Shown piece by piece: positions 1-17,200 of a stretch of 64,000 nt of DNA. The notes beneath the pieces were generated by a model. The model was not told the DNA's origin. It saw only the letters and a program-made list of their open reading frames with translations, and ran no database searches. Source of the DNA: Candidatus Thorarchaeota archaeon (GTDB lineage Archaea > Asgardarchaeota > Thorarchaeia > Thorarchaeales > Thorarchaeaceae); contig JAGSHN010000025.1 in the NCBI GenBank assembly GCA_029855935.1, positions 1-64,000 on the forward strand. Direction: 5' to 3'. Numbering within the stretch: position 1 is the stretch's first letter; each line of letters begins with the position of its first letter. The position numbers and the translations under genes were made by a program.

Positions 1-802
1 AACCAGCGCGATACAGACCGGGCTGAATCGGAATTCCCCGCCAAGAACCGGGGACACGGTCATAGGCCATACGTAGTCTGACAACAAGGCCGGAGTACGG
101 TTTCTGGCGGTTCTCATGTTCAGAGGAGGGAGCGTCATTCGAACGACACGCTTCCACATAGCGAATCTCAGGACCATAGTTCTCACACAGGGACACATCC
201 AGACCGCACGCACGCATCAGGCTGGAGAGATCATCAATGGGGGATGACAGATTGCGAGCTCCCTTGTTGCCGCGCATCATCTCCCGTTGGACCTTGCGAC
301 GAGTACGCCAGAATGCACGGCGGTCATCGTCATCCTCAGGGAGGATCTCCGCAGCTATCACCATCCGTCCGTCGGATCGTAGTACATCTCTGGCGCGGCG
401 GAGTAACACTTCCCTCTCAACAGGTGTCAGCTCGGACAGGAGAAACGTACTCACAATCACATCGAACGTTGTGCCCTCTCTTGCTAGACTCTCAAGGGTC
501 CTAATCACGTCGCCCTCTATCAGTGTGGGGAACTGCCCTTCGTTGGCTGCTCGTCTCCGAGCTGCAGTGATCATCGCACAGCTTGCATCCACGCCCACCA
601 CAGTGGCCCCTCTCTTCGCAGCCTCAATGACCAGAGTTCCCGGACCGCAACCGAGGTCCAGTACTTGCATGCCGGGCCGAACAAGCGAGAGGATTCGCTC
701 TCGAATCTCACTGACCCGTCCGCGGAGCACTTCATCAAATTCACGTTCGTAGGTCTCGGGCCTCTCTTCAAGCATGATCATATACGCCACGGCCACTGTC
801 AC
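1..802 (-). CDS. Class I SAM methyltransferase (CpaM-like) fused to the N-terminus of an HgcA/CdhD-like corrinoid domain; runs off the window edge
   Basis: Not in the ORF track because it is open at the edge. Manual translation from GTG at 802 (overlapping the arsR stop): MTVAVAYMIMLEERPETYEREF...VLDLGCGPGTL...VVGVDAS...FDVIVSTFLLSEL...GIPIQPGLYRAG>. It carries SAM motif I and ends in a PGLYxxG motif typical of the start of CdhD/HgcA-type domains. Confidence 0.75.
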   Translation of the reverse strand, partial: MTVAVAYMIMLEERPETYEREFDEVLRGRVSEIRERILSLVRPGMQVLDLGCGPGTLVIEAAKRGATVVGVDASCAMITAARRRAANEGQFPTLIEGDVIRTLESLAREGTTFDVIVSTFLLSELTPVEREVLLRRARDVLRSDGRMVIAAEILPEDDDDRRAFWRTRRKVQREMMRGNKGARNLSSPIDDLSSLMRACGLDVSLCENYGPEIRYVEACRSNDAPSSEHENRQKPYSGLVVRLRMAYDRVPGSWRGIPIQPGLYRAG

Positions 803-1173
803 TCACCACCAATTACTCCCAGAAGAGAGAGGACACGTTCGCGCATCGTCTCCGACAACGAGTAGTAGACCCATCGCCCCCTACGTTCACTCTTGAGCCA
901 ACCTGCCTGCTTCATAGCTCGAAGATGGTGGGATACAAGTGGCTGACTTGCAGCCGATAGTGCGTGCTGTATCTCACACACGCATGCCGATCTGAGACGA
1001 AGCAGCAGAAAGACGATACCAACCCGGATGGGTGCCGTGAAGATCTCAAAGAGGTCGACATCCTCGCGAAATTTCTTCATCACCTCGATACGCTCCGAGT
1101 CAGTGGCACAACACGGGCGAGTGTTGGGGACGGTGAGACAGCCGCGAAACGCGGCCCTCGTTCTCTTGACCAT
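799..1173 (-). CDS. arsR: ArsR/SmtB family metalloregulator
   Basis: ACVCEI (alpha3 CxC site), SQPLVSHHLRAMKQAG, ERRGRWVYYSL; extra N-terminal CC pair. Confidence 0.9.
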   Translation of the reverse strand: MVKRTRAAFRGCLTVPNTRPCCATDSERIEVMKKFREDVDLFEIFTAPIRVGIVFLLLRLRSACVCEIQHALSAASQPLVSHHLRAMKQAGWLKSERRGRWVYYSLSETMRERVLSLLGVIGGE

Positions 1174-1181
1174 ACGCCTTG

Positions 1182-1213
1182 TATAAACGGGGTTTATATA
1201 AATCTGGTGTATA
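1182..1213. promoter_or_regulatory. Candidate ArsR operator/promoter (tandem inverted repeats)
   Basis: Perfect TATAAAC-GGG-GTTTATA (1182-1198) and overlapping imperfect TATAAAT-CTG-GTGTATA (1197-1213), starting 8 bp upstream of the arsR ATG. Confidence 0.6.
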
Positions 1214-1534
1214 TGTAGCCGCCCGTGGAGCTGTGATCCGTGTTGTCCAGACGGGCGTCGTGGGTTGCCAGACTTGACAGTCTGGATATATCCGTGCGGA
1301 GATATGCGTAGGGCCCTGAAGAGATGTATCGGTGGAGATGCAAATGGACACGCGCTGCCGGAGTCCTGACTGCGAGATGATAGTCCTCCCGGAGATATCG
1401 GAGAGAGGCCCAGACATCGAGGAGATCTCGGCTAGGCGCTACGTGAAACGTGCAGCGACCATCACCGCGGGGGAGCCGTCCTGTCACGGAGAGGCCTCAG
1501 CTGTGTCTCAAACAGCCTAGCGGAGGGACGACCA

Positions 1535-2263
1535 GTGGTGAGAGATCTGTTGTATCTGATCGTCCTCGCAGCCGACGTAATCCTTCTCGCAGGCCTGGCG
1601 GTCAGCATCCTAGTACCGGAGCACCGTGTCTGGCCACCTCCCAAGAGGGAGTCTTGGCAGTACTGGACATCTCGGAACTTCATCACCATAGCCTCTGTCG
1701 GTGTTCCCGTACCGGGCATTCTCGACTGGAACTCGATGTGGATCTCTCACTGGGTCAGAATTCCCATCGCGATTGGTGTGATGATAGTCGCCAGTGCCAT
1801 CATCTACAAGGGCATCAAGACATTGAGCTATCACCAGAGCCTCGGACTAGAGGGCGAGCTTGTTGAGAGCGGGCCCTACCGATACTCAAGGAATCCCCAA
1901 TATGTCGGCCTGATACTGCCCTACGCCGCGAGCATATTGCTCACGAACTCGTACCTTGCTCTCATAGCCGGGGGCCTGCTCATCATTGTCTACGCTGTGA
2001 CCCCCCTCAGTGAGGAGCCGTGGCTGCCCGAGCGATACGGAGAGGCCTATGAGAGATACCGGCAACGTGTTACTCGGTATGTGGGGCGACCAAGAAACAA
2101 TGACAGTGAGCAGTACCACCGTGATGAGTCTGGAGATACTCGCACTGCAACGGATAGGCCTAACAGTGAGCGATGCCCTCCAATATCGTGGTATCATCAA
2201 CCTCGGCCGGCAGCAAAATGTCAATATTGTTGCTATCTGCATAGTTCAAGAAAACACTCGTGA
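1535..2263 (+). CDS. Isoprenylcysteine carboxyl methyltransferase/PEMT family membrane methyltransferase
   Basis: Multiple TM segments; LVESGPYRYSRNPQYVG...EEPWL...YGEAYERYRQRV motifs. The 3' tail runs into the AT-rich island and overlaps the radical SAM gene. Confidence 0.85.
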   Translation: MVRDLLYLIVLAADVILLAGLAVSILVPEHRVWPPPKRESWQYWTSRNFITIASVGVPVPGILDWNSMWISHWVRIPIAIGVMIVASAIIYKGIKTLSYHQSLGLEGELVESGPYRYSRNPQYVGLILPYAASILLTNSYLALIAGGLLIIVYAVTPLSEEPWLPERYGEAYERYRQRVTRYVGRPRNNDSEQYHRDESGDTRTATDRPNSERCPPISWYHQPRPAAKCQYCCYLHSSRKHS

Positions 2264-3617
2264 TAATTGATGATTCTACTCTACTGTACGGGTCGACCAA
2301 GAAATCGTGATCCAGATTTCTCTGAACAGAATTTCTTGTGATTGGACAACCGAACGCCACGAATGGTAGAAAAGCCCTTGAGGACAACTTTGATAGTAGC
2401 TTTGAACCACTTTCAATTATCTCGTCAAGCGAGCTGAGGATACTTCCAAGACAGTATTCTTTGCTGCCAACAGATTCTGGGCATGAATAGATAGCCCCAT
2501 CGATTGAGATATGAAACATAACCACCCCTGCCAAACAACCGAAACTGTTTCTACAGACACTAGATGAGAAACCCGTTCTGCATAGCTGTAGAATGCTATC
2601 AATGGGCTCAATGCCAACTCTGCTATGGTATTGTGTTTTCAGTTCTGCCAAGGTCGAAATCGATTTTGCCCATGATTTCGCTGGCAGAAGTGTTCTAAAC
2701 CTATCTGTGGGGACTACTGGGACAAACGAAAACTTCTGAAGAGAATACTCCGAGACAAAATAATCAACCATTTCAGGTATTGTTTCAACATTAGCGGGAG
2801 TCACGACACATTGAACACTTATCTCTTCAGGTGCATAGAATCTAAGTAGATTATCAATGTTCTCAATTGCTCTTTTCGATGTTTCACCTCTCTGCTCTTG
2901 CTGGATTGCTCCGATACCATCAATACTGAGACCTAGCCGAATATCATGATCATATAGCAGTCTAACAGTCTTTGAGTCCAGCAAGGTCCCATTTGTTTGA
3001 ATTGACATTGTGAAATTGCTAGATCCAACAGCCGTTTCGATCGTCCTAAAGAGGGCAATCACTCGATTCAAACATAGAAGTGGTTCACCTCCATATGCTT
3101 GAATATGTAGTTGTTCATTAGGCCACTTGTTGTGGATCTTGGTTAGAAATTCTCCAATTGAGTCAATGGTACTATACTGTAGAACCCCCCTTTCGAAGCC
3201 CATATCTTGCAAGTGAGTGCGGGAACAGTATCTGCAAGCTAGATTACAATTGGTCGTAATGTCAATAACAATTTGCGAAACTCGCTGAATGGGAAAAAGT
3301 GGAGATCTATCAACCGTTGTGTTTTCCGATAGTCCTTTGCGGGTAAGATAATGAAAACCATAGTTGCTTAATACTACATCATAGTTTTCGTATGACCATT
3401 TTGCGAAAACATTGTCTTCGGGTAGATCAACTACGAGGTCTGAAAGCTTCGAATCCATTTTGAGGACTGAAACTATTGATTCAATATCAGCAGTTGGCAA
3501 GTTCTTCAGGCTTATGATTCTGTCTTTTACTAGATCGTAGATTCTCACACCAGATTTCGAAGAGAAAGTATATCTCAAGTCCGGACGTAGTATTGTCTTC
3601 AAGATATTCCCAACCAA
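2160..3617 (-). CDS. Radical SAM/SPASM-type peptide maturase, HxsB-like
   Basis: CNLACRYC, YGGEPLL, QTNGTLL, LSIDG; C-terminal CRNSFGCLAG...DGAIYSC auxiliary cluster region; ~110-aa N-terminal extension. Confidence 0.8.
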   Translation of the reverse strand: MVGNILKTILRPDLRYTFSSKSGVRIYDLVKDRIISLKNLPTADIESIVSVLKMDSKLSDLVVDLPEDNVFAKWSYENYDVVLSNYGFHYLTRKGLSENTTVDRSPLFPIQRVSQIVIDITTNCNLACRYCSRTHLQDMGFERGVLQYSTIDSIGEFLTKIHNKWPNEQLHIQAYGGEPLLCLNRVIALFRTIETAVGSSNFTMSIQTNGTLLDSKTVRLLYDHDIRLGLSIDGIGAIQQEQRGETSKRAIENIDNLLRFYAPEEISVQCVVTPANVETIPEMVDYFVSEYSLQKFSFVPVVPTDRFRTLLPAKSWAKSISTLAELKTQYHSRVGIEPIDSILQLCRTGFSSSVCRNSFGCLAGVVMFHISIDGAIYSCPESVGSKEYCLGSILSSLDEIIESGSKLLSKLSSRAFLPFVAFGCPITRNSVQRNLDHDFLVDPYSRVESSIITSVFLNYADSNNIDILLPAEVDDTTILEGIAHC

Positions 3618-3618
3618 A

Positions 3619-4596
3619 CTAGGCCTTTATAGCTGAGATCTCAGATGTCCCGAAAACTTGTGCATAGCTGTTCCACATCCTCGGACAAGTATTCTGAACA
3701 ACGCACGAAGCACAAGCATCAGTATGTATGACCGAATCAAATTGGGAAAGAAAATCAACTCCCGTAGGTGTAATCAGAAGAGTATTCCCATCTGTAATCT
3801 CCTGCGCTGCCAGATATTTCCAATAGAAAGGATCGACTAAGCAAAGTGGAATCGTATTTATGGAAACAGGTAGCCCATATGACTCGCATCTGTCAATTGC
3901 TTGTTCAACCTTGGGAAGTGCATCGGTATACTTTATTCCAATCGTGTCCATGTATGAAAGGGCTCTTCCTGAATAGTCCACTCCGTAGAATCCAACAGAA
4001 ACACCGGGACAGCCAAATTCAGAGTGCACAAACTCAACAGAATCAAGTAGACCTTCAACTGTAGGCCTCATTAGTAGAAACTTCAAATGTACATTGAAAC
4101 CTCTTTCTAGCAACAATCTTATTCCCCTGATTCTTGACTGCCAACTGTTTGGCCTCATTGCGATTCCATTATGGACCTGTGAATGATGTGAGTAAAGGGT
4201 CACGAAGAAAACCGGAGATGCCGATGCCATTTTGAAAATCGTTTGAAGACGTTCAACTGTTGAGGAAGTCATAGTCTGGCTCGTCGTTGCAAACGTTATC
4301 GGTCTGAAACCCATTTGGAGAATATTCTGAATCAAGTGGTCAATGTCCGACCACAAGAAGGGCTCGCCACCGCTTATTTCAATTGGGATTTTCTGCGGTT
4401 CAAGTTTCATTTTGGAGACAAAATATGTTAGCCTATCTACAACACGTTCGATACTTGTGGAATCAGAATGATTTGACAATGGACAATTCAAGCACCTATT
4501 GATACAGTGAAAAGTCGGAGCAATATAGACATTCGAAACATCACTGTTTTGAACTGTCCAATTCACATGTGAGGTCCTCCGGAAAGATACTATCAA
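3619..4596 (-). CDS. Radical SAM protein, HxsC-like
   Basis: CINRCLNC, ISGGEPFL, TLYSHHSQVHN, VSINTIPLCLV...YW and C-terminal CASCVVQNTC, a pattern matching HxsC-type maturases. Confidence 0.8.
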   Translation of the reverse strand: MIVSFRRTSHVNWTVQNSDVSNVYIAPTFHCINRCLNCPLSNHSDSTSIERVVDRLTYFVSKMKLEPQKIPIEISGGEPFLWSDIDHLIQNILQMGFRPITFATTSQTMTSSTVERLQTIFKMASASPVFFVTLYSHHSQVHNGIAMRPNSWQSRIRGIRLLLERGFNVHLKFLLMRPTVEGLLDSVEFVHSEFGCPGVSVGFYGVDYSGRALSYMDTIGIKYTDALPKVEQAIDRCESYGLPVSINTIPLCLVDPFYWKYLAAQEITDGNTLLITPTGVDFLSQFDSVIHTDACASCVVQNTCPRMWNSYAQVFGTSEISAIKA

Positions 4597-4605
4597 TTCA
4601 TCTTG

Positions 4606-4746
4606 CTAGTTTGGTCCTCTACTCCAGCGACTCCATCTGTTCCAGCCAGTATGACCAAAAGCCTCTTTTCCAATTCTTGCTAGTTCGGTTATCTCTATTT
4701 CAATATCGGATCCAATTCTCTTGCTATACACCCTTATTTTGGCCAT
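4606..4746 (-). CDS. Putative RiPP precursor peptide (46 aa) with HTG-WNR-WSR-WSR core
   Basis: Manual translation MAKIRVYSKRIGSDIEIEITELARIGKEAFGHTGWNRWSRWSRGPN*. GGGTGG SD-like motif upstream; stop lies 9 bp before the first radical SAM gene. Below the ORF-track length cutoff. Confidence 0.75.
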   Translation of the reverse strand: MAKIRVYSKRIGSDIEIEITELARIGKEAFGHTGWNRWSRWSRGPN

Positions 4747-4791
4747 CCAACCACCCACAAGCAGGTCCTAACCCGCATCATTCTCCTCCGC

Positions 4792-4807
4792 AGATAAAAA
4801 TCTTTTC
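4792..4807 (-). promoter_or_regulatory. Candidate BRE/TATA promoter of the precursor-radical SAM operon
   Basis: Minus-strand GAAAAGA-TTTTTATCT about 50 nt upstream of the precursor ATG. Confidence 0.35.
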
Positions 4808-5044
4808 AGGATTCCCGTTCAGTAGAAGAGCCATACGCTAGATATGCACTTCACTGTCTTGTGGCCTCTCCAATGCGTATATCGAATTTGATTGCGACCA
4901 AACCCAATCAGACAGTTTTCCAGTGTGGCTTTGAATCTGACAAGAACTCAACTCAATCTACTTCTACTCGTATTCTATCCTTCTGGGGAGTTCAAATTGT
5001 CCTGAATCGTCGAACTAGATTGCCAAATCCATGCAGCAACTTAC

Positions 5045-5290
5045 TCATGTTCGGTAATCAGTAATCCAGCCTAGTTCTGCTTGATAACTCGTACAAGCGT
5101 CGTTGGTTGGGCAATTATTGCAACTTGGATTTGAGTCGTTCTTGTAGTACTTCAAACCCATGTACGCAAGTCCATCATCATGAGATTGCCCCATGGTACA
5201 GGGTACGTCCAAGAATACCTCCGCTTGCTCCTTGATCTCAATCTCCACAATTGTGGGTCGAATGGAGGCAGTACAACACGTTGTATGCTT
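5045..5290 (-). pseudogene. Probable remnant of an HhH-GPD/endonuclease III-like Fe-S protein (C-terminal part)
   Basis: DDGLAYMGLKYYKNDSNPSCNNCPTNDAC resembles the FCL motif C-x6/7-C-x2-C-P-x4-C with the first Cys replaced by Tyr. An LPPFDPQ segment lies upstream in a different frame; no ATG start. Confidence 0.45.
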
Positions 5291-5360
5291 ATTACCTCGA
5301 CTATGTCAAATATACTCAATATATTTGTTATAGAAAACAGGAGGGTCGATTCTGATAGAG

Positions 5361-5603
5361 ATGACGACGATTGCAATCAAAGAGAGCACCCGAAGAGAAC
5401 TCATTCGAATCGCAGGAGAGATTCAGAGAAGAACAAGAGAACGCGTTGACTTCGATACGGTCATCCGCTTTCTGATAGAGGCATATGAAAAGGACAAGAT
5501 CAACCTCAATGCGTGGCAACGTTTTCTTGAGCCCATCCCCGGCGCAGACTTTGAGTCCCTGTATCTTGAGTTGATGGCGGAGCGTCGTTCTGATGAGCGG
5601 TGA
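5361..5603 (+). CDS. VapB-like antitoxin (ribbon-helix-helix type)
   Basis: MTTIAIKESTRRELIRI...DFDTVIRFLI; overlaps the downstream PIN gene. Confidence 0.75.
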   Translation: MTTIAIKESTRRELIRIAGEIQRRTRERVDFDTVIRFLIEAYEKDKINLNAWQRFLEPIPGADFESLYLELMAERRSDER

Positions 5604-6021
5604 GAAAAGAAAAGTGACAGTATTGGATGCTGGAGTATTGCTGGCCCTTGCTCTGGGTGAGCCTGCTGCAAAGGGACTGGGAGCGGAGATCGGAAAAGGT
5701 GAGAAGCTCTTTGCGTGTACCGAACTGGGGTTGTGCGAGCTTTTGTATGTCCTCTGTAGAAGAATCGGGTGGAGAAAGGCAAAGAGGAAGTTACATCTGC
5801 TGATCAAATCATCGACAGTACGATTCATTCCTACGAGTGCTCTTTGGTTGGAATCGGCAAGGATCAAGTGCAAGGTGCCAATTGCACTGCCCGATTGTCT
5901 TATCATTGCCGCAGCCAGAGTAACTAGAGGGATTGCACTCTTTGCTCGAAGAGAGAAAGAGATTGCAAATGCAGTAGAGAGAGGGCAGCTCAAAGAGAAC
6001 ATAGCGTTTCTAGATCTCTGA
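5593..6021 (+). CDS. vapC: PIN-domain toxin, VapC-like
   Basis: VLDAGVLLA...LCELLY...IALPDCLIIAAA PIN acidic motifs. Confidence 0.85.
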   Translation: MSGEKRKVTVLDAGVLLALALGEPAAKGLGAEIGKGEKLFACTELGLCELLYVLCRRIGWRKAKRKLHLLIKSSTVRFIPTSALWLESARIKCKVPIALPDCLIIAAARVTRGIALFARREKEIANAVERGQLKENIAFLDL

Positions 6022-6376
6022 GGACACACTGAGTCCCAATCTCAAGACACACGCCCTCTCGATGCCAGCCTCTCCATTGGGGCGTACTGTCTGAGCATCC
6101 TCTCTCGCCATCTCTGAGCCTTCGAACCGAAATATCACGCATGAGGAATACCTGCGGCAATTGCCAAGACTGTGTCCGCGCGCATACGATGAGGGCAACC
6201 ATCGCGCAATCCACAATGGACAGGGGAGAATGTTGGCAATATCCCATACTAATTGAACCTGCAGCGCCTTTGGCCACCGGATATTGACGCCCACAGGAGA
6301 TGAAACTCCCCCAGGGGTCGCCTGCACTTCGTGTGGCACGGGTAAGGCCCTCCCGTGATTTGCAAGGGCTCCTAGG

Positions 6377-8734
6377 CTACGCACCTCGGCGCTTTCTGAG
6401 TACGAGCACCACCACAAGAACCGCTGCCACAGCTCCGATGGCAGTAGGCAACAGAATGCCTCCGCCACCAGTGGGCGAGACGGCAGTCGTGGTGATCTCG
6501 CTGACCGTTGATGTTGTCGTGGTGGTAGTTGACGTTGAGGTGCTGGTGGTTGAAGTGGAGGTGGTGGTCGTGGTCGTAGTATCATTGCCGGGGAGTGGGG
6601 GCAGATCCTCAGGACGAGGGATGTGAGGGAATATGTCGAGAGCGAATGACGGAGAGGGTCTCTCCTGTGAGATGTAGAGGATGCGGGTCCCGTTCGCCAC
6701 AACACTGACGGGGACACGCAGGGTTCCGTTGACTGCGAGGTGACTCCCCAGAGAGCTGTTTGAGTCTAGGCTGTGGACCCAGTACGTCCCATCTGGTAGT
6801 CCGAATCTCGCGATGTCGACGGTGTAGTTGAAGGTCCGAGTCTCGTTATTGAAATTGCAGATGCCAGCGGCAAGAAGGCCATCGTCCACCAGGCCCTGTG
6901 TGACGAGAACGTTCTCCGTATCGTTCGAACTGATGGAGTTGGTGATGTTGAGAAAACGAGCAAACGACCGCACCACTCTGCGGTAGAGAGCCCTCATCTC
7001 GGGCTCGTTATCATAGTCGTAGGTCTCCGCAGTGACATTTGGCTTCGTGCTAAAGTGATTCGGCCCACAGTACAACATCCAGCCACTGCCCGGACGAGAG
7101 CTGTTGTGATAAAGAACAAGTGGTACTCCGTCTGCGGCATGCGCCGGCCCGTAGTCATACAGTGTCGCATTCGCAATGATGTGATGGTCAGCTGTCAGGC
7201 CCTCGGTGCTGAGGCAGTAGGCCTCCGCAAATGACGCATTGTAGGATCGGTCGAGACGGAGGAGATTACCAGGCGAGATGTTGAGGTACATAGCGCCATC
7301 ATAGGTGAGCTCTGTCAGGTTCTTCTCAATGTCATATCGGGCACGGTTGACGTTTGGAGTCTCCTCGTTGCGGATGCCGCCCAGAAAGATGACATTACCA
7401 CCATTGGCAACAAAGTCGTTGATCTTCTCGACCGTCTCGTTGAGATGCCATCTGTCGGTCATCAGAATGATGCTGTACTTCGACAGATTCAGGTCGCTGT
7501 ACGCAAAGCACCTCTGATTGACGAGGTCGTACTCGGTGAAGAGTCGGAGATGATCGACGTGGAGCATAGGCTCCCCCGTCTGGTAGCCATTCCCGACGAC
7601 GAGAACCTCTGGTTGGGAGTTCAGCTGTGGTAGCCACCTGAGTTGGCCCGCAAGGTTGTCGATGTATGTGAACAGCCTCCGTCCCATTAGGTCCGTCCGG
7701 TCGTGACCCCAGCGCCAGTCGTAGCTGTCATTGTTCTGCGGCGCCCAGTCAAAGAAACCAAGGCCGGCGATTCCTGAGACGTAAGACAGCCACGTCTCGC
7801 GTCGGATCTGCTCATAACTCCCAATCTTGTAGTAGAGGCCATCTCCAGCCTCGTTGAGAAAGTCCCAGATGGTCCCCCAGATTGTCATCAGAAAGGGCCT
7901 GTCCGGACATGACGCTCTGTACCTTCGGATGGTCTCGTAGAGGAGCCAGGGATTGTCAAACGCGTAGTAGCAATCGGCCGACAACATATCCGACTTTGCT
8001 TCATATGGTGGGGCAATGTCGTCGACCATTCCCCAGACTGGCGGCATAAAGAGCGACTGGATGACCTTTGCCTGAGGGGCGAGCGACCTCACGTAGTCGT
8101 AGAGGAAATTGTACACCCAGATCGTCTTGTTCGCATACCACTCCGCCGCAGTCCAGCGTTCTGTGGCGTTCATCTGCAGCAGCGGCTTCAGCTCGAAGCC
8201 AGTCTCTGCTCGGTAGGTATCGGCGTATTTTGCAACGTCGGGCGAGAGTTCGCTCTCGATATTGGCATAGCGCGTCCAGGCAGGTTCCTCATCGCCGAGA
8301 AGGATACCCCAGACGAGGGACAGGTTGAGGAGTCTCTCGGGGGGCGATGCGCCGGGCTCTTCGAAGCTTGGCACTGGTCCGATGCCTAGTCCGAAGTCAA
8401 CAGCCTCAATGGTCCAGTTCCTGATGGTCTCGTTGTACACTATGTCGACGGGATTTGTTATCCACTTGGACCACCAGTTCGTTGCCTGAATGATCTTCAC
8501 GCCCGCCTGTGCCATCGCCTCCACGTAGTCAACATCCTCCGGGGCCATCTGACCTGACCGCCCCCATATGGAGAAGTTCCCGAAGAACAGAGACTCACGA
8601 TAGTGCAATCCGCCGTGAATCGTCTCGATTGCAGCCGCCTCTTGCAATGGGGCGCAGGGAATGACTATCACAAGAATGACGAGGCAGCAGGCCACTCTCT
8701 GCCTCATTCGTGCAGGTTCGTGACTGGGACACAT
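6377..8734 (-). CDS. Secreted, membrane-anchored glycoside hydrolase-like protein (clan GH-A/GH42-like architecture)
   Basis: Signal peptide; ILLGDEEP and SADCY motifs; GATase-like middle domain; Thr-rich linker; C-terminal TM plus RKRR. Confidence 0.6.
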   Translation of the reverse strand: MCPSHEPARMRQRVACCLVILVIVIPCAPLQEAAAIETIHGGLHYRESLFFGNFSIWGRSGQMAPEDVDYVEAMAQAGVKIIQATNWWSKWITNPVDIVYNETIRNWTIEAVDFGLGIGPVPSFEEPGASPPERLLNLSLVWGILLGDEEPAWTRYANIESELSPDVAKYADTYRAETGFELKPLLQMNATERWTAAEWYANKTIWVYNFLYDYVRSLAPQAKVIQSLFMPPVWGMVDDIAPPYEAKSDMLSADCYYAFDNPWLLYETIRRYRASCPDRPFLMTIWGTIWDFLNEAGDGLYYKIGSYEQIRRETWLSYVSGIAGLGFFDWAPQNNDSYDWRWGHDRTDLMGRRLFTYIDNLAGQLRWLPQLNSQPEVLVVGNGYQTGEPMLHVDHLRLFTEYDLVNQRCFAYSDLNLSKYSIILMTDRWHLNETVEKINDFVANGGNVIFLGGIRNEETPNVNRARYDIEKNLTELTYDGAMYLNISPGNLLRLDRSYNASFAEAYCLSTEGLTADHHIIANATLYDYGPAHAADGVPLVLYHNSSRPGSGWMLYCGPNHFSTKPNVTAETYDYDNEPEMRALYRRVVRSFARFLNITNSISSNDTENVLVTQGLVDDGLLAAGICNFNNETRTFNYTVDIARFGLPDGTYWVHSLDSNSSLGSHLAVNGTLRVPVSVVANGTRILYISQERPSPSFALDIFPHIPRPEDLPPLPGNDTTTTTTTSTSTTSTSTSTTTTTTSTVSEITTTAVSPTGGGGILLPTAIGAVAAVLVVVLVLRKRRGA

Positions 8735-8799
8735 CCGGTGCAGTCCTCTACGAGATGGGGTGGACAGACTGGTATTCGACCGGATTCTTAAGTATGTTA

Positions 8800-9288
8800 C
8801 TAGCCTTGATCAAGCCGCTCTTGCCTCCTCCAAGATACTCTTTCTATGGCAGCATAAACCAGTCCACCGTGCCTCGCAACTGATACAGTACTGTTCGAAT
8901 CCTCAAGGTCGACGGCGTTTGAACAGGAGGATGACACCGTATCGCTCTGCGGGAACCATCTTCGTGCAGAATCCAAAAGACGCGACATACTCTGGTTACA
9001 ACGAGTGCTCGGAGGTTTCAGGCTGTTGGATATGCCGCTACGAATGTAGACCTGCAGTGGCGGCGAATAGTCAGCACAAATACTCATGGACTCATGGGTG
9101 ACATCAACGACTGGGAAAAAGTCTAGGAGCCCTTGAGGGCCGTACGGATACTTACACGCCTTCAACGCAGGCCGCCCTGAACAGGACACATCTAGCTGGT
9201 CCAGAGTTCGCATCAATGTCGACTTCTGCGCCTGACGGAACACTAGGAAGAGATCAACATCGTTGATAGTCCAAGAATCGTCTGACAA
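8800..9288 (-). CDS. Hypothetical protein
   Basis: ORF overlapping and co-oriented with the TOPRIM gene; no recognisable motif. Confidence 0.35.
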   Translation of the reverse strand: MSDDSWTINDVDLFLVFRQAQKSTLMRTLDQLDVSCSGRPALKACKYPYGPQGLLDFFPVVDVTHESMSICADYSPPLQVYIRSGISNSLKPPSTRCNQSMSRLLDSARRWFPQSDTVSSSCSNAVDLEDSNSTVSVARHGGLVYAAIERVSWRRQERLDQG

Positions 9289-9787
9289 AATATCTTAGGG
9301 ACTCGTTATTGCGACAGCCGAGCTGCAAATCGAATTGATCAAGAAGGGATATCATGAATTCTGTCGGTGTCATGCCAGGCGGGCATACGCGTTCAAACTG
9401 CTCCTTTGTCGCATAGTTCTTGCTATCAATCAATGAGGCACCAACTTCCTTCAGCCAAGATGTGGTGACGCCAGCAAGATACCAGCTCTCAATCTCATAT
9501 TTCACTCCGACAAACCTACGACGATTCAGTTCAAACGGATATTGTCGGTTGATGCTATCGAACCGACCAGAGTAGCAGGGAACCCAGTCCAAGTCACGCA
9601 CAAAGATGTAGTCGCCAGTCCTATCCGCACTACGAAGATGACCGACGACCCTCTTCTTAGTCAATTGAGCGTATTTCACGAAACGAACCGAGTACTTTTG
9701 TTCAAGTAGCGGCTTCAAGAGTCGCTGAAAGAATCTCTGATCATCGACACCCTCTACAAATATCGTCAATCGTTTCTTCGAGATCAC
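9254..9787 (-). CDS. TOPRIM-fold nuclease (DUF4435/DUF4276/OLD-like)
   Basis: IFVEGVDD, FVRDLD, KYEIESWYL; 4-bp overlap with the ATPase. Confidence 0.7.
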   Translation of the reverse strand: MISKKRLTIFVEGVDDQRFFQRLLKPLLEQKYSVRFVKYAQLTKKRVVGHLRSADRTGDYIFVRDLDWVPCYSGRFDSINRQYPFELNRRRFVGVKYEIESWYLAGVTTSWLKEVGASLIDSKNYATKEQFERVCPPGMTPTEFMISLLDQFDLQLGCRNNESLRYFVRRFLDYQRC

Positions 9788-11049
9788 TCCAAGAGCCCCT
9801 GAACGTAGAGATCTTCAACTCCAAGGTCTTCATTGAGGAACATCCGAACATCCTCGCTGTCCGCAGGACGTTCCACCGTAGAGAAGCCCTCCTCGTTCCT
9901 CCGAACGAGTAGGAGATTCTCAAGCGGGGTATATCGGACAAACTCAGGATTATGCGTGGTGACTATAATCTGGTAATGCCTCCGGCTCGTAACATCCTGC
10001 ATAAAACGGACGATATTCCCGATTAGGGCAGGATGGATGTTGCGTTCAGGCTCTTCGAAGAACAGTACTTTCTTTCTCTCGAAGTACAGAGCAACAATCA
10101 TCGCAGTGATGGCCACGGTCCCGTCGGACAACAAGAAGGATGGTAGTGTATGCCCATCAAAGTAACTCTCCTCCATCATTGTCAGGAGTGTGCCGTCGGG
10201 AAGATTCTCAACAGATACGTTGCGAATGAAAGGAAGAACATCCCCAATGAGGAATATGAGCCTCTTTTTCTGTCGCGGGTCACTGACAATCTGCTTCAGC
10301 CTGATTGCGAGATTTCGACCATCAGGCTCAAGTTCAGCCATTCCTGTCGCAGAAGCTGTACGTTTGCAGGTATGAGAGTCTATGTCGAAAGTGGCTGTGC
10401 TTCTGAAAAACTGATCAAACGGGATTAGTAATGGTGAGAACAAGGCTGTGTGCTCAATGATTGAGAACTTCCGCCATCCAAGTTCTTCGGACAGCGGTTC
10501 TCGCAATACAAGTTCTTTCAATCCTTTGCTTTCAAATACTGCTCTAAGCTCTTGGGGCACTTCGGATGAAATGTGGCCACGATCATTGCTTACAACAACA
10601 GTGCCTTTCGCCAGTTCCTCGACAGGGGTATCCTCACTTCCAAACGGCATTTCTGTGAAGAGATCACATTGGATTTCAGCTCGTTCGCTGACGCTATACT
10701 CCTGCTCACTGTCACCAAGTCCCAATCGAAGCTCGTAAGAGAGGGTACTGATTCGAATGCCAATGCCCTTATCGGGGATACTGATTGTTCCCAGATCTCG
10801 AAGTGTGATTCCAATGACTACCTCGCTGTCAGGGTCACATCCGATAGTGCGAAGATACGAGAAGCCGCCCTGAATTGAGATCGCGTTGTCGATGCCGTGA
10901 GTAGCGGCGTCTTTCAAGAACTTGACTACGGTCACTAGGTTTGATTTGCCTGAGGCATTTGCTCCAATTATCACATTGAATTCTCTCAGACTAACCGATA
11001 CGTCCGCGAAGTTCTTGAAATTGACAAGCCGAATACTAGATATATGCAA
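9784..11049 (-). CDS. ABC-type AAA_21/AAA_15 ATPase
   Basis: Walker A GANASGKSN, signature LSDGT, Walker B FFEEPERNIHP, TTHN. Confidence 0.9.
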   Translation of the reverse strand: MHISSIRLVNFKNFADVSVSLREFNVIIGANASGKSNLVTVVKFLKDAATHGIDNAISIQGGFSYLRTIGCDPDSEVVIGITLRDLGTISIPDKGIGIRISTLSYELRLGLGDSEQEYSVSERAEIQCDLFTEMPFGSEDTPVEELAKGTVVVSNDRGHISSEVPQELRAVFESKGLKELVLREPLSEELGWRKFSIIEHTALFSPLLIPFDQFFRSTATFDIDSHTCKRTASATGMAELEPDGRNLAIRLKQIVSDPRQKKRLIFLIGDVLPFIRNVSVENLPDGTLLTMMEESYFDGHTLPSFLLSDGTVAITAMIVALYFERKKVLFFEEPERNIHPALIGNIVRFMQDVTSRRHYQIIVTTHNPEFVRYTPLENLLLVRRNEEGFSTVERPADSEDVRMFLNEDLGVEDLYVQGLLE

Positions 11050-11258
11050 TGAACATTCCCCTGATGAGCAGTAGGAAACTCAGCTCGTGTGCTACGCCCT
11101 TCCACTCGCCTACTTTTTAAAGTTGAGCCTTTGGCCGAGGTTCCAAACCCGGAACGGCGATAGTCACTTCAAGGGGGAAACTCGCCGTTCATAGTCGGGT
11201 CGCCTGCTGCACAAGGCGAATCTACTCTCTCTTGGCAGCCGGATAGTCTCGTGGGGCA

Positions 11259-14200
11259 TCAAGGCTCATCACCGTGAGAGTCAGTGTCATCCTCGCCACC
11301 GGGCTGTTCAGGCTCCGGCTGGCTCTGAGCATCTTCCTCCACTTCGTGCACTTCAATCGCTGGCGGCTCCGGCACCTCGTAGGTCCGAACTTCTGTTCTA
11401 TTGTCAGCTGACCTCCGACGGATCCTTCGTGCTAGTTTGGGAACACCAGTCACAATCTTGGATGACAGATAGGGAATCACGACCAAGAACACTATCGGGA
11501 AGAGTATTATCACAGCAAGCGAGTAGCTCCTGATGAAGTCCAGTGATGACGCAGTCGCTGCACCGACGACTATGAGGAACATCAGAAACTTTGTCCGAAT
11601 TGATGTCCCGGTGCGCTGGACTAGAAGCTCACGCTCCTCCTCAATCACACGCGGCGGAGTGCCAGCAGTCCGCATCGCCTGAATCCTCCCGAGACCCTTC
11701 CGAATCTCACGGTAGAGATTGACCACGACAACAACGATGCTGCTGACGTAGGTGCCAAAGACCGTGAGAAGTATTGCAGGGACGGCGATCTCACCAAGAT
11801 GGAAGACGTTCTCAAGGATGTAGACTTGAAAGAGCTCGATATGCCGGCCGTACTCTATTATCTGGTAGATCATCCCAGGCACGAGAGCGAGGTGCCACAG
11901 TCCCGCAAGGACACGTCTCCGACTCACGCGCTCTGTTATCAGAATCGAGGAGTAGGCGTCCCGGTACAGCCAGATACCGTAGAGAAGCACAGAGATACCA
12001 ATCAGCAGAATGCTCTCCGCTAGCGCAAGGCCGTACGATCCCATCGTGCCGAGATAGATCGAGTGGAGCAGCACCATTCCACCGCCGCCGAGGACAAGCA
12101 GGTACACGCGATCCAGGCGCGTGACGCTCTGCCTGACTGACAGCTCCTCCTTGCCCCTCGCTGAGAGCATCCCTGCGACTCGGAAGTAGATGAACATCCC
12201 GATGAGGCTGATGACCAACGAGAGACCCGTTCCCAGAATGAAGGTCGAGCCCGTTAGGGTGATCTGGGGGACAGGTACGACAACGCTGAGAGGCAGGCTG
12301 TCACTGGCCGGTATGCATGTCGTGCCACCGACGTGTACCTCCAACTGATAGTCACCGTGGCGCGCGTTGATGTTGTCGAAGATTGCCACATAGACGCCGG
12401 GCGTCTCGGACTCCGTGGCGACGACGGTCCTGTTGGCAAAAGTGACAACAATATCAAGCCCAAGAACAGGCGCGCCGTAGGCGTCCTTGACCTCCACCCT
12501 GACGAGCAGGTCACTCCCCTGTTGCGGAGTGAGGGTCGATGTCGTGATTGTGATCTGCGGGCGAGCCAGTATGTTGACTGTCCCATTGACCACCGCCGTG
12601 TCAGCAAGACTGTCAGACACTTCAATCTCGTAGACGTACTGAGACCACGTCCAGCCATCGGTGGTCACAGTCCGGACATAGGTACCATTCCCGAGGCTCT
12701 CAAAGTAGAACAGCGTCTCTCGCACGGTAAGCCCGACCGTGACCGAAGACATCGGGTTTCCGAGTGCATCAGCAACAGACACTCGGAACTCTATTGGTTC
12801 AGTGCCCTGAACGAATGAGCTGTTTGCAGCCGGGGAGATTACCCTCACCCGCAGTGTGCTCCTGACTTCCACGCTGACATTGAACAGATTGACCGTGACA
12901 AACGGGCTATCCGTCTCCACCACGAAATAGTACACTCCTGGGGGACCGGCAAGCGATAACTGAATCGAGAACTGACTAGAGTCGTTGCCGACAGTCCCCT
13001 GATAGCGTACTCCCTGAAAGATGGCATCCCACGAATACCCCGTGATGGGATGCGCGTAGTCATCGCTGAGCAGAGCCGTGAAGGTGATATTGTCTCCGAC
13101 CATCAGCGGCGCCGGATAGTCGAGCGCGAGCACACCAGAACCGACAAGCCTGAAACGGTGTTGCAAGACGATGGACTCAAGGTACGGATGCGTCACACTG
13201 ATACTTGCGGTATACAGGCCCAGTGGGAAGATGGCCGTGCCTATCTCTGCTGCGTACCGACCAGGTTGGACCTCTGCCAGCAGATACGGGCTGCCCAAGA
13301 TGCTGACGACCACCTCTGCGTCATCAATCTGCGTCCCTATGAGATCGGTCAGATTGAGCTCAAAACTGATAGTCGCACCCTGCGTGACATTCGACATGTA
13401 GGCTGGGCTCACCACGGCCACAGAGGGGACTCCCACGATGGCCATCGTCAGGCTCTTGTTGACAGGCACAACATACGAGCCGCTGATGTTGACCCATAGT
13501 TGATAGAGGCCGGGGGGCACGCCGGGGGTCATCAGCCAAGAGAATGTGTGGCTGTTCAACATACTACCTGACACACCCTGTCCAGCAAGGCCGACTGCGT
13601 AGTCGAACGACGACACCGGGTTGCTGTACGCATCGGTCACAACAAACGTGAGATTTAGCTCAGCGTCATTGCGTGCAGGTGTCTCGTATTCAACTGAAAC
13701 GTCCACTATCCCCAAGACGATCAACCGACGCGATGTCTGGTTAGCGTGAAGGTAGGTCTCCGCAACGGAGATGAGAATCTCGTACTCTCCAGGCGCATAG
13801 CCCGCCGTCGAAAATGTCGCTGCATATGTGCCATTGACTATGTGACTAAGCACAAGGCTCACGGGACTGAGCATAGTCACGGTGGCATCAGAAACCGGGG
13901 TGCCGCTCCAGTCGAACACCGTGACAGAGAGGTCGGTCGAATCGCCCTGAGACAGGGTCCAGCCACCACTCGAGTCCATTGTCAGCACAGGGTTGGACAC
14001 CACCTCCACCGTCGATGTCGTGAACTGCGGATGACCGTACGTTGACGAGACGTAGATCAGGAGAACACGTGAGCCGATTGACGTGTTGGCGGTCACGACA
14101 GCACGGTATCCAGCACCGCCTGTGGAGATTGCGGTGTAGTTCACTCCGTTGAACTCCACCTTCACAAGAATGCCATCGGGAGTTGTCCCATACGAGTCGT

Positions 14201-17200
14201 AGACGTATGCTGATACGTTGAAGTGGCTGCCACCCTCCACCGTCAGCGGATGGCTGACTGAGGCTGTCAGATTACCATAGACCGAGATCGTAACCATACC
14301 AAACTCGGTGCCCACTACGTATTCATCCTCCACTATCACCGTGAAGTTGTATCGTCCGATTGGCAGGTTTGCCGAGTCGTCCAAACGGTAGCTTCCGGCA
14401 ACCACCTCGCTCAGGACAAACTCGTAGGAGCCACTTTTGAGTTTCACTGTCGCGCCAGACAGGGCATTGGAGTACTGGTCTGTCAGATTCAACCATCCCG
14501 AGAAACCAGTATCCTGTTCGACAACGGACGGGATGTCCGTCACGACGACAAGCGTGTCGGTCACCACTCTCAGTTGCGTGGTCGCTGAGGCCACACCCGT
14601 TGCGAAGCGGTGGTCCGCTGTCGCGTTGAGAAGATAGTCACCGGGCGGGAAGGTGACAGTCGACAGGAACACCTCGTACGCGGGGTCGCTGAAATTCGCC
14701 TGGTATACCGTATTGTCAATGGTGACATTGACCGCGGCGTCCGAGATCACTATTCCCAACGAGTCTGTCACAGACACGTACACTGTCGCGTTCTGGCCCT
14801 GAGTTGCCGACTCGGGAGCGTGAACGGTCACTGTAAGAGGGCTCCTGACCGTGAGGTTTCCTATGATGTCACCGGAGATGGGGTGATAGTAGTCGGTAGT
14901 GACCTGCAGAGTCATATTCACCAGCCCCATCGGCCAGTTGACTTGAAACTGTGCCGTGTAATGACCCCCTACGGCGTCGTAGACCAGTCCGTAGCTCCTC
15001 TTTGTCTCCTCTCCGCCTAGATTGTAGTGAGCTATCGCAGTCACACTGGCATTTGAAAGCGATTCCCCGTAGATGTTGGTCACTGTCACACTCAGAGATG
15101 CCGTGTCACCCTGCACCAGTTGGGTGGATGAGAAAGAGACGCTGTAGTCGAGCCGATAGTACCAGTCGAGGTCACGGACAACCCCAGCGTACATACGGTA
15201 TGGTTCGAGGACTGGAAATGCTGCTATGTCCTCGCCGCCGCCAGGGTCGACATTCCCGACAGGGACCGGATTGTAGACTGCGCGCGCGAGAACAATGTCG
15301 CGCAAGGTCTGGTCACTGAGCGTGATTGAGTGGAGTGTCTTGTCCTGCTTGGTAAAGACCACGAGCTCAGGGCCGTTGAACCCGTCGAAGTCTGCTATGG
15401 CATATCCTGAGGGAGTGGCATCACCAATGGAGACCGTCCACTCTACATCAAGACTGGGACCAAGACGCATCAGCGAGAGAAGGCCATCTGTGTCAACCAT
15501 GAACAGGTCGTCGAGCCCATCGGGTTCGAGGTCATACAGGTACAGGCTTCGGAAGTGATAGTCATCGAGAGTATATTTGCCGGACGCACTGATGTTCTGT
15601 GTCTGGACATCAAAGAGATAGAGCCGCGTATCAGCAACTGCCCCTCTCCATAGCGTGATTGCATAGAGGAACTGATCGTGGCCCATTGTGGAGTTGTGGT
15701 AGGACGCAATTCGTCCGTAGCTTGCATCAGTATAGCTCGGCTCCAGCGCTATGTTCTCCTCCTTGACCCGAGAGAGATTCGTGGCGTCGTATATCTGGAC
15801 AAGGGTATCGTTCAGGAGTACGGCGATCTGGTATGAACCGTTCTCACCTGTCTGCGACCAGGCTGCGCCGCGTAGGGGAAGACTGAAGACCTGCCCGCCA
15901 GATGTCAGAGGCGTGTTGGTCCAGCCGCCGGACGAACCCCTGCGCACTATGGCGACGGCGCTGTCATCTACGATATGGGTATCATCAAGACCGTCACCAT
16001 CATCATCGAACACGAAGACCTCGGTGAGCGCGCGTATATTGCGAGTGGCGACATCGTAGGTGTAGGACGTGATGTCCTTTCCGTCGATTAGGTAGACACC
16101 AGCCCGCGAGCTGTTTGCCGTGACCAGTTGTAGGTCGACAACATTGTCGAGATTGTTAGAGGAGGCAAGGAGCGCAAACTGCGTATTGTAGTTACTCCCC
16201 AGCGGGAGCTCGACCGCCTGAACGACCGTGCCGTTGGGACGAAACTTGCGTACCATGATCGCGTATCCCCCACCTGAACCAGGTTCAACCGACGCCGTGT
16301 AGAGGACAATCTCGCCCGTCGAAGTGTTGCCCACGGCCATCACATTGCGCGTCCGCATCTCGTACGGGTAGCTCATCTCATATTCCCAAGCGAGGTGCCC
16401 CGTCACCTCAAACTGCAGAGGACTTGATGGCCCTCCGACATAGGCGGGGTTGAGATACGCATCGACAATCTCGATGTAGTACTCATACTGGCCAGCGGAC
16501 AGCCCGACAAGGAATGTGAGATACTTCCTACCAGATGTGGAGGCTTCCAGGCCCTCACTGGCCCATCCTAGGTCGCCGACGGCACGGATATGGAGCACGG
16601 CTCTCTCCACCGAGGAGTCCTCAGTCACGCCGACCTCGATCTTCACATAGTCGTCCACAACTGTCGGATGCAGTGGCCACACTGGGCTCGGTTCGAGTAC
16701 AGGACTTGTGGTGTCGCTCAATCGTACATAGATGTCGCGACCAGCCACGGCCAGCATATCATCGCGTCCGTCCGCATCGATGTCGTAGGCATAGGCCCGT
16801 GTCGAGCCCTCAACCTCTGACGCCACGAAGGCAATCTCACTGCTTGACCCGTGAAGGAAACAGAGCCGGTCCTGACTTGTCAGCGTGACCACATCGTCCC
16901 GATCGTCCCTATCCACGGTACCAATACCGGGCGGAGCGTCCACGTTCACGCCCGTCACACGTGAGTACAACACAGCTCCGTCAGAACCGTCAAGGAAGTA
17001 GACTTGGTCCAGCTCAGATAACGATATGACAAGGTCCGTCTGCCCATCGAGCGTTATGTTGGCAGATGCGAGGAAAGTGGGCTCGACCGATGAGGCAGCA
17101 AAGGCCCGGTCGTAGATGGTGCTCAACGCCGAACCCTCAAGTACCGTGACATTTCCCACGCTCTGAAATATTGCAACATCGTCGACCCCAACACCGTACT

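Follow-up and report, generated by a model that had tools for sequence, protein, structure and literature searches.

A candidate peptide-modification cassette that joins a Trp-x-Arg repeat precursor to two radical SAM enzymes in a Thorarchaeota genome

A contig of Candidatus Thorarchaeota archaeon (JAGSHN010000025.1, assembly GCA_029855935.1) carries, within the 64,000-nucleotide stretch analysed here (positions 1 to 64,000, hereafter the window), a 46-codon open reading frame (ORF) just upstream of two genes for radical S-adenosylmethionine (SAM) enzymes. Is this small ORF the substrate of the two enzymes, and what might they make of it? We find that the three genes very probably form a genuine precursor-maturase cassette. 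Our overall reading, that of an acquired three-gene cassette making a ribosomal peptide and modifying it after translation, is probable. The chemistry is a more tentative matter: three-residue rings joining Trp to Arg, proposed here by analogy, are a real possibility that we would stop short of calling probable. The elements of the cassette and its upstream signals are:

2160..3617, minus strand: HxsB-like/SPASM-type peptide-maturase radical SAM enzyme, 485 residues, TTG start (NCBIfam, Pfam, alignment A5, family profile)
3619..4596, minus strand: HxsC-like radical SAM enzyme, 325 residues, TTG start (NCBIfam, Pfam Radical_SAM, conserved columns, complex model)
4606..4746, minus strand: precursor peptide gene, 46 residues (ORF, called gene P0272, leader profile rank, 13-sequence leader family)
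4618..4644, minus strand: core repeat WNR-WSR-WSR (W35-R43), presumed modification site (read from the sequence)
4751..4756, minus strand: putative Shine-Dalgarno-like GGGTGG, 4 nt before the ATG (read from the sequence)
4794..4806, minus strand: possible archaeal B recognition element (BRE)/TATA element AAAAGA-TTTTTAT, 48-60 nt upstream of the ATG (a reading by eye)

The three genes are tightly spaced on one strand. The precursor ORF runs from an ATG at 4746-4744 to a TAG at 4608-4606; 9 nt separate this stop from the TTG at 4596 that opens the 325-residue ORF, whose own stop lies 1 nt from the TTG at 3617 of the 485-residue ORF. The leader would span approximately residues 1-31 (4654-4746), leaving residues 32-46 (4609-4653) as the core. 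The peptide has no signal sequence and ends in ...GHTG-WNR-WSR-WSR-GPN, with H32, W35, W38 and W41 in three-residue register. An earlier note on this DNA had described the ORF, its four in-register aromatic triplets, the GGGTGG, the 9-nt spacing and two nearly abutting radical SAM genes downstream, and the sequence bears out each of these. The note had also called the ORF unannotated, which needs correction, since the exact 46-residue product is already a called gene in a public protein collection (P0272, a singleton cluster).

Could so short a frame have arisen by chance, with the enzymes acting on a different substrate? Its length speaks for this, as does the closest related enzyme pair, which has no ORF upstream. 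We scored every stop-to-stop segment of at least 20 residues in the six frames of the 2.97-Mb genome, 84,141 segments in all. A hidden Markov model (HMM) of five foreign leaders ranked the precursor ORF first of the 84,141 (E 0.012; next 6.9), and an HMM of two leaders, selected through their Trp cores and then stripped of these, again placed it first (E 0.36; next 34). Across all six frames the genome has 25 instances of the pattern (W..)x3 and a single (W.[RK])x3, that of the precursor ORF. Together with the leader homologues beside HxsC-like genes in other loci and the complex model described below, which passes its controls, these results make a chance frame extremely improbable, and we regard it as effectively excluded.

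The N-terminal half of the peptide defines a small family. A leader motif, K-h-x-V-Y/F-S-K-K-h-x-x-x-I-E-h, is common to the window peptide and 12 other small unnamed proteins; in the alignment of these 13 sequences (A7), Ser8 is invariant and Lys10 nearly so. The leader-bearing ORF adjoins an HxsC-like gene in 11 of the 11 other loci examined (L027, L029, L030, L034, L035, L094-L096, L103-L105), and the HxsC-like genes of leader-family loci, that of the window included, carry PLCxxDPxYW and CxxCx5C. When a profile of six peptides was run against 5.8 billion proteins, just ten matched, all of them small, unnamed and without a Pfam domain. Three matches from this search were new, and their loci, once looked up, all adjoined HxsC-like genes. 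A less biased sample came from three further HxsC-like relatives picked by rank alone, each of which has a leader-type ORF immediately downstream.

L029 has the HxsC-like gene that ranks second in closeness (31% identity); immediately before this gene lies an ORF whose product closes with eight W-x-x triplets in a row, and Trp cores of the same kind occur in L027, L028 and L033. At their N-termini, the peptides of L029 and L027 are similar to the window peptide (...VYSKK...I-x-I-E-V...). In L030, L034 and L035 this leader is found again, at the start of small ORFs that adjoin HxsC-like genes and have cores of quite another kind. Whether homologous enzyme pairs go without a similar small ORF was a test that the earlier note had set for its proposal; it was run and passed, relatives carrying leader-homologous ORFs with period-3 Trp cores. 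The proposed nature of the small ORF, a precursor-type peptide linked with the two radical SAM genes, is supported.

The smaller enzyme has HxsC (TIGR03977) as its best NCBIfam match, at 93.1 bits against a cut-off of 267.9. Gene callers begin it at a GTG 30 nt (10 codons) further in, giving a 315-residue product (P0001). In a 73-member alignment, the CX3CX2C motif (C31/C35/C38) and GGEP are kept, and a second conserved set of four Cys residues is formed by C252, in the PLCxxDPxYW block, and C295-x2-C298-x5-C304; this second site fits a second, predicted iron-sulfur cluster. An exhaustive HMMER search of a representative library returned 2,156 relatives at E<=0.001, mostly of about 300 residues, while one relative only (P0123, 36%) exceeds 31% identity; a word-index search returned the enzyme itself and one weak match only. 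At the N-terminal radical SAM core, the profile of the HxsC-like family also has matches in YydG, an epimerase, and SkfB, which forms thioethers; no solved structure covering the C-terminal part was found. Look-alikes in the ESM Atlas were limited to unnamed radical SAM clusters.

To this enzyme the leader can be docked with some confidence. A complex predicted with two 4Fe-4S clusters and SAM, from alignments of 73 rows for the 325-residue enzyme and 6 rows for the peptide, scored 0.73, against 0.01 for the best of three controls. For comparison, 58 out of 80 complexes with solved structures attain this mark, as do 2 out of 110 mismatched pairs, a calibration that is approximate because our own alignments and riding ligands were used; across the runs contact agreement was at least 46%, and the predicted local distance difference test (pLDDT) of the partner at least 52. 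In the model, leader residues 4-11, 15, 17, 19 and 22 contact enzyme residues 255-259 (DPFYW), 299-303, 231 and 323-325, with the best contacts between Ser8 and Lys10 and enzyme residues 255-257. The contacted residues constitute the most conserved non-catalytic block of the HxsC-like family and lie beside the second Cys site. The modelling suggests that leader residues 4-11, including the invariant Ser8, would add onto the conserved DPFYW strand at this site. Given the co-occurrence of leader and enzyme, the HxsC-like protein may be the constant docking partner across the leader family, and we consider its role as leader binder reasonably likely.

The larger enzyme, of 485 residues, likewise keeps CX3CX2C (C124/C128/C131) and GGEP. 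Its first NCBIfam match is of PapB type (107.5 bits), and HxsB (TIGR03978) ranks 12th at 60.6 bits against a cut-off of 370; for its distant relatives HxsB is the best full-length match. Its family profile matches the anaerobic sulfatase-maturating enzyme anSME (4k36) and CteB (5wgg) at E of about 1e-53. Only C355, C361, C379 and C424 align with SPASM cysteines, short of the full seven-Cys motif. The earlier note had proposed scoring the two enzymes against HxsB, HxsC and SPASM models, and the outcome was mixed: HxsC is the best match of the smaller one, and all scores lie under cut-off, with HxsB far down the ranking and the Pfam SPASM match weak (E 0.06). An AlphaFold model of the larger enzyme has pLDDT 80-97 in the radical SAM core and below 50 in residues 1-110 and 414-485, values too low to judge an N-terminal domain resembling a RiPP recognition element (RRE; RiPP, a peptide made on the ribosome and modified after translation).

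Which enzymes accompany a leader appears to depend on the core that the leader carries. The loci fall into two sets:

Period-3 Trp-repeat core (window, L029, L094, L027, L095, L105): HxsC-like enzyme plus the larger SPASM-type enzyme
...G(M/I)SN(A/D)DYG(S)-type or similar core (L030, L035, L096, L103, L104): HxsC-like enzyme only, in one or two copies

A period-3 Trp core was found in 6 of the 6 loci that have the larger HxsB-like enzyme. Because the SPASM-type enzyme is confined to loci with a period-3 Trp-repeat core, this co-occurrence points to it as the enzyme that would act on the Trp ladder. In the second set, the same leader precedes a C-terminal ...G(M/I)SN(A/D/E)DYG(S) core at L030:1187-1333, L035:170-304, L096:1273-1431, L103:2678-2806 and L104:1007-1195. 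These peptides may represent a distinct product class, their C-terminal Tyr-Gly being reminiscent of cofactor-type precursors.

How close is the cassette to the system that gave HxsC its name? The HXS anti-phage system, HxsD-HxsB-HxsC-HxsA, is the paired radical SAM system described by Haft as His-Xaa-Ser (Li et al., Nat Commun 2026, PMC13128918). It is found in Pseudomonadota in 99.7% of cases; HxsC binds HxsD, the basic repeat effector binds DNA, and an unexplained change of +8 Da arises on SHRSS (PMC13128918). Like HXS, the window cassette has two different radical SAM enzymes, one of the HxsC lineage (about 300 residues, C-terminal CxxCx5C) and one of SPASM type (about 460-480 residues), beside a substrate whose three-residue repeat starts at an aromatic or heteroaromatic residue. 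The differences are many. The enzymes score far under the cut-offs (HxsC 93 versus 268 bits, HxsB 61 versus 370), the genes run A-C-B instead of D-B-C-A, and the 46-residue substrate lacks a signal peptide and a peptidoglycan-binding domain and repeats Trp-x-Arg, not His-x-Ser. In addition, the model suggests direct docking of the leader on the HxsC-like enzyme, half of the SPASM motif is missing from the B enzyme, and the host is an archaeon. HxsA (TIGR03979) had no match in the 97.3%-complete genome, the local substrate having one H-x-G and three W-x-R triplets. HxsD (TIGR03976) had no match in the genome either, by a search that is weak, control genomes being equally without a match; no small ORF of this kind occurs in the island around the cassette. 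The description of the locus in the earlier note as an Hxs-like system therefore stands as to the best NCBIfam match of the smaller enzyme and falls as to identity with HXS, given the scores below cut-off, the lack of HxsA and HxsD matches and the order A-C-B. By sequence, the cassette is a distant relative that shares the enzyme lineages and mode of working of HXS and is not a true HXS system.

What, then, might the enzymes do to the core? On aromatic-x-x motifs, SPASM/twitch radical SAM enzymes take a hydrogen from the side chain of the third residue and join the carbon to the ring, as in triceptides and darobactin. The cassette, ordered as precursor, HxsC-like enzyme and HxsB-like enzyme, would supply a ribosomal peptide that is then modified. 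By analogy with radical SAM cyclophane chemistry, a side-chain hydrogen would be abstracted two residues past each Trp (at Arg37, Arg40 and Arg43) and the carbon joined to the indole. The outcome would be up to three small rings, each with a loss of 2 Da, in a cationic Trp/Arg-rich peptide.

Known maturases offer points of comparison. Like the triceptide systems (XyeB/YhhB, GrrM/OscB, FxsB, AmcB, PauB), the window locus has an aromatic-x-x core (W35-N-R, W38-S-R, W41-S-R), a motif often repeated in those systems, and a SPASM-family enzyme with an N-terminal extension. Unlike the triceptide maturases, the 485-residue enzyme falls under every cut-off (YhhB 74.2 versus 445, AmcB 60.4 versus 425, FxsB 56.2 versus 370, DynA 61.3 versus 450); its SPASM domain is incomplete, a second radical SAM enzyme looks obligatory, and the leader family is different. 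A closer parallel in product is WprB, described in 2025, which forms cross-links from Trp-C5 to Arg-C-gamma on WPR motifs, with WprA as precursor and WprC as helper (PMC11851443). The WprB enzyme cluster includes some archaeal sequences and a precursor group termed 'single WxR/K' (PMC11851443). Likened by description only, the two systems share a precursor with three W-x-R motifs and, probably, a radical SAM enzyme with a single-cluster, twitch-type C-terminal domain. They differ in the middle residue (Asn or Ser here, Pro there), in the spacing of the motifs (contiguous here, 18 residues apart there) and in the partner, a second, HxsC-like radical SAM enzyme taking the place of the small WprC helper. 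The WprB-related WgkB model is absent from the 25 best NCBIfam matches of the 485-residue enzyme and matches the 325-residue enzyme weakly (26 bits). The earlier note knew of no description of the combination seen here. Since radical SAM Trp-Arg links on W-x-R are already published for WprB, novelty is limited to the pairing with an HxsC-like partner; full-text literature searches found no description of Trp-repeat substrates paired with HxsC-like enzymes, nor of the VYSKK leader.

A real cassette might also carry out some other chemistry, such as Trp-Trp links up the period-3 ladder, an HXS-type +8 Da change or epimerisation, and we take this to be a substantial possibility without thinking it probable. 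Across the family the Trp spacing alone is conserved, not the third position, and HxsB and HxsC together give the unexplained +8 Da on SHRSS, not a -2 Da link (PMC13128918); both observations leave chemistries other than Trp-Arg rings open. The likeness of the HxsC-like profile to YydG and SkfB, and the presence of two enzymes where known cyclophanes need one, point the same way. Set against these, aromatic-x-x motifs with SPASM/twitch radical SAM enzymes have so far yielded ring-to-sp3-carbon links (PMC11851443, its references 16-20), and each third-position residue in the family offers a side-chain C-H.

Several observations weigh against the reading of the locus as a cassette that cross-links Trp to Arg. 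Upstream of the closest enzyme pair (L026, 36-37% identity) there is no ORF, just a tRNA-Arg gene and 137 nt; the contig of this pair stops inside the B gene, so that a downstream precursor may exist at that locus. Of the five leaders behind the first HMM, three had been noticed through their likeness to the precursor ORF, which is why the rank test was repeated with two leaders chosen for their Trp cores; this control removes the selection bias yet is weaker. The complex model places the leader confidently, not the core. The link between B enzyme and Trp core comes from about a dozen loci, many on short contigs. The window core has three Trp residues as against 6-9 in relatives, and the residue after Trp-x varies in the family (N, D, Q, A, R), so that Trp spacing and not the Trp-x-Arg unit is conserved. 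Finally, the CxxCx5Cx3C half of SPASM is absent from the 485-residue enzyme and from its counterparts in L029 and L094 (alignment A5). With half of the motif gone, the enzyme probably has one auxiliary cluster, in the manner of a twitch domain; and because the incomplete SPASM is common to L029 and L094 at 23-25% identity, it appears to be an old, maintained state.

As a side observation, the tRNA-Arg(TCG) gene at L026:48-126, after which the radical SAM pair begins at a distance of 137 nt, is a typical integration site.

How did such a cassette come to lie in this genome? It sits in a stretch of deviating composition:

2100..5350, no strand assigned: low-GC acquired island with the cassette (GC content, congener comparison, phylum search)

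The GC content of the island is 0.40-0.44, compared with 0.56 in the flanking DNA. In the congener G004, homology with the window ends at about 2094-2110, and the cassette is not at that syntenic site; there, a PEMT-family gene with a product of 194 residues is directly followed by a convergent surface-protein gene. The window counterpart, a PEMT/ICMT-family methyltransferase gene (1535-2263, plus strand), is 48 codons longer; the added stretch, of low complexity, falls within the island and runs over the end of the 485-residue radical SAM gene, and the insertion therefore appears to have replaced the original stop codon. The HxsC-like enzyme has no match at E<=1e-18 among 400 genomes of the same phylum, and 60 closer relatives are without an HxsC-like gene, having just about 25%-identical radical SAM genes of a different kind (about 480-500 residues). 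A pattern scan of genome contigs with the single enzyme gave no relatives, and a scan with the alignment matched only distant bacterial and DPANN-type radical SAM genes. No tRNA gene lies within 15 kb of the island, and no convincing direct repeats flank it. On the strength of the GC island, the lack of a relative in 400 phylum genomes and the empty site in G004, the three-gene cassette is by all appearances horizontally acquired.

An acquired cassette may be an inactive relic, its genes intact yet silent or non-functional in the host. We think this improbable, although the cassette is a singleton in the phylum, has the shortest of the Trp-type cores and a truncated auxiliary-cluster domain, and has, upstream of the precursor gene, a low-GC tract of some 600 nt (4747-5360) that seems devoid of genes. 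Three open frames with all catalytic motifs intact, and gene spacings of 9 nt and 1 nt that have been kept, speak for function, and the truncated SPASM, shared with L029 and L094, is no mark of recent decay. The cassette DNA is contained in one dataset, a hydrothermal-vent metagenome (DNA) that is possibly the source sample; no RNA dataset was listed. Cdc48 look-alikes mark the host as archaeal, and Pfam probes for profilin and Vps28, run with the Asgard assignment in view, matched nothing here and nothing in the controls. Within the otherwise gene-free 600 nt there is a Cys-rich ORF of 67 residues (5045-5248, minus strand; ...CNNCPTNDAC...) without a Pfam match. It was considered as a decayed third radical SAM gene or a second precursor and rejected as such for want of support, its likeness to the CxxCx5C motif amounting to about 0 bits against the HxsC-like and HxsB-like profiles; tblastn and tblastx found no relatives of it among the loci compared.

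The surroundings of the cassette raise the question of its purpose. The nearest characterised HxsC-type system is anti-phage and has a DNA-binding basic repeat effector (PMC13128918), and the cassette could be an antiviral module of HXS-like type whose mature Trp/Arg-rich peptide is retained in the cell, in envelope or cytoplasm, and not secreted as a natural product; its targets there would be incoming nucleic acid or membranes. The island holds no exporter or protease gene, and its vicinity is rich in conflict genes: an antitoxin-like ORF of 80 residues overlaps a PIN-domain (VapC) gene (5361-6021, plus strand), and an AAA_21/AAA_15 (OLD/PARIS-like) ATPase of 421 residues (9784-11049) is coupled with an ORF of 177 residues that has no Pfam match (together 9254-11049, minus strand), likely a defence pair about 4 kb from the island. 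Among the relatives, L029 is flanked by a DUF1156 DNA methylase on one side and a PIN/MazE pair on the other, a nucleotidyltransferase-like ORF comes after L030, and a neighbour gene in L094 weakly matches PF22415 (PSV_ORF131-like), a virus-named Pfam domain. Such neighbours fit a conflict-related role of the cassette without demonstrating one.

Other evidence makes an antiviral module rather unlikely, if well short of negligible. HxsA, HxsD and a peptidoglycan-binding domain were not found (for HxsD by the weak search described above), the peptide has just 46 residues and no signal sequence, and the cores of relatives are acidic or neutral, so positive charge is no family trait. PADLOC yielded generic viperin-model matches to the radical SAM core only and no sign of any defence system already described. 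Mobile DNA of every sort often has toxin-antitoxin genes as neighbours, and the window VapC has relatives of 50-58% identity in same-family genomes without the radical SAM cassette, which makes the VapC pair probably a separate mobile unit. Shared toxin-antitoxin neighbours were also considered as a sign of a common mobile element and discarded, the window VapC and the PIN gene beside L029 being 29% identical, a generic likeness. The L094 locus (1-16243) carries a C-B-A-C' cassette of the VYSKK-leader family amid many short unknown genes, together with a gene for a PLD-type nuclease (PLDc_2), and may be a viral or integrated element.

With the reading of an acquired peptide-modification cassette, a 46-codon ORF becomes a testable substrate for two uncharacterised radical SAM enzymes, and the leader motif and the matching enzyme strand (DPFYW) are now defined for mutation. 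Metagenomes contain thousands of HxsC-type enzymes, with 2,156 representative clusters at E<=0.001. To our knowledge, HXS is their sole studied system, and its chemistry is still unresolved. Three genes and a 15-residue core are about the simplest entry to HxsC-type chemistry. The split between cores and enzymes predicts a division of labour, in which the Trp ladder is found only with the SPASM-type partner and DYG cores with the HxsC-like enzyme alone. Should the product be a constrained Trp/Arg peptide, it would be an archaeal membrane- or nucleic-acid-binding scaffold of interest. We speculate, well beyond what we think likely, that the VYSKK-leader/HxsC-like family is a new RiPP-like class, in which the leader is read by an HxsC-type enzyme without RRE or HxsD helper and a SPASM-derived enzyme zips a Trp ladder into fused or serial rings. 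The archaeal WxR form would then be a rigid cationic mini-peptide for defence against viruses or competitors, a counterpart of HXS with new chemistry.

The search among HxsC-like genes also turned up loci of other designs. L031, L032:1173-3453 and L042:3114-5379 have HxsC-like genes between proteins of about 300 residues (...HIGLTFS...LCxYFSP...) and about 155-165 residues; a leader-type small ORF was not noticed among their listed frames. L028:236-7259 holds two HxsD genes (PF27806), two HxsB-like genes and a fused double HxsC (606 residues), and its 96-residue peptide starts with what resembles a signal peptide and carries a WxxW ladder with CHSDWGHSES at its end; in this locus the His and Trp types seem to be combined. 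A second Trp-repeat family comprises peptides of about 100 residues with five or six (G)WSNS-x-x-SW(K/R)N units (L022:234-554, L023:2374-2733, L025:2517-2825). In each of these three loci the peptide is followed by an HxsC-like enzyme of 390-420 residues and then by a distant HxsB-like enzyme of 450-460 residues, always with AMP-binding, carrier-protein and GNAT genes as well, which suggests acylation of the peptide.

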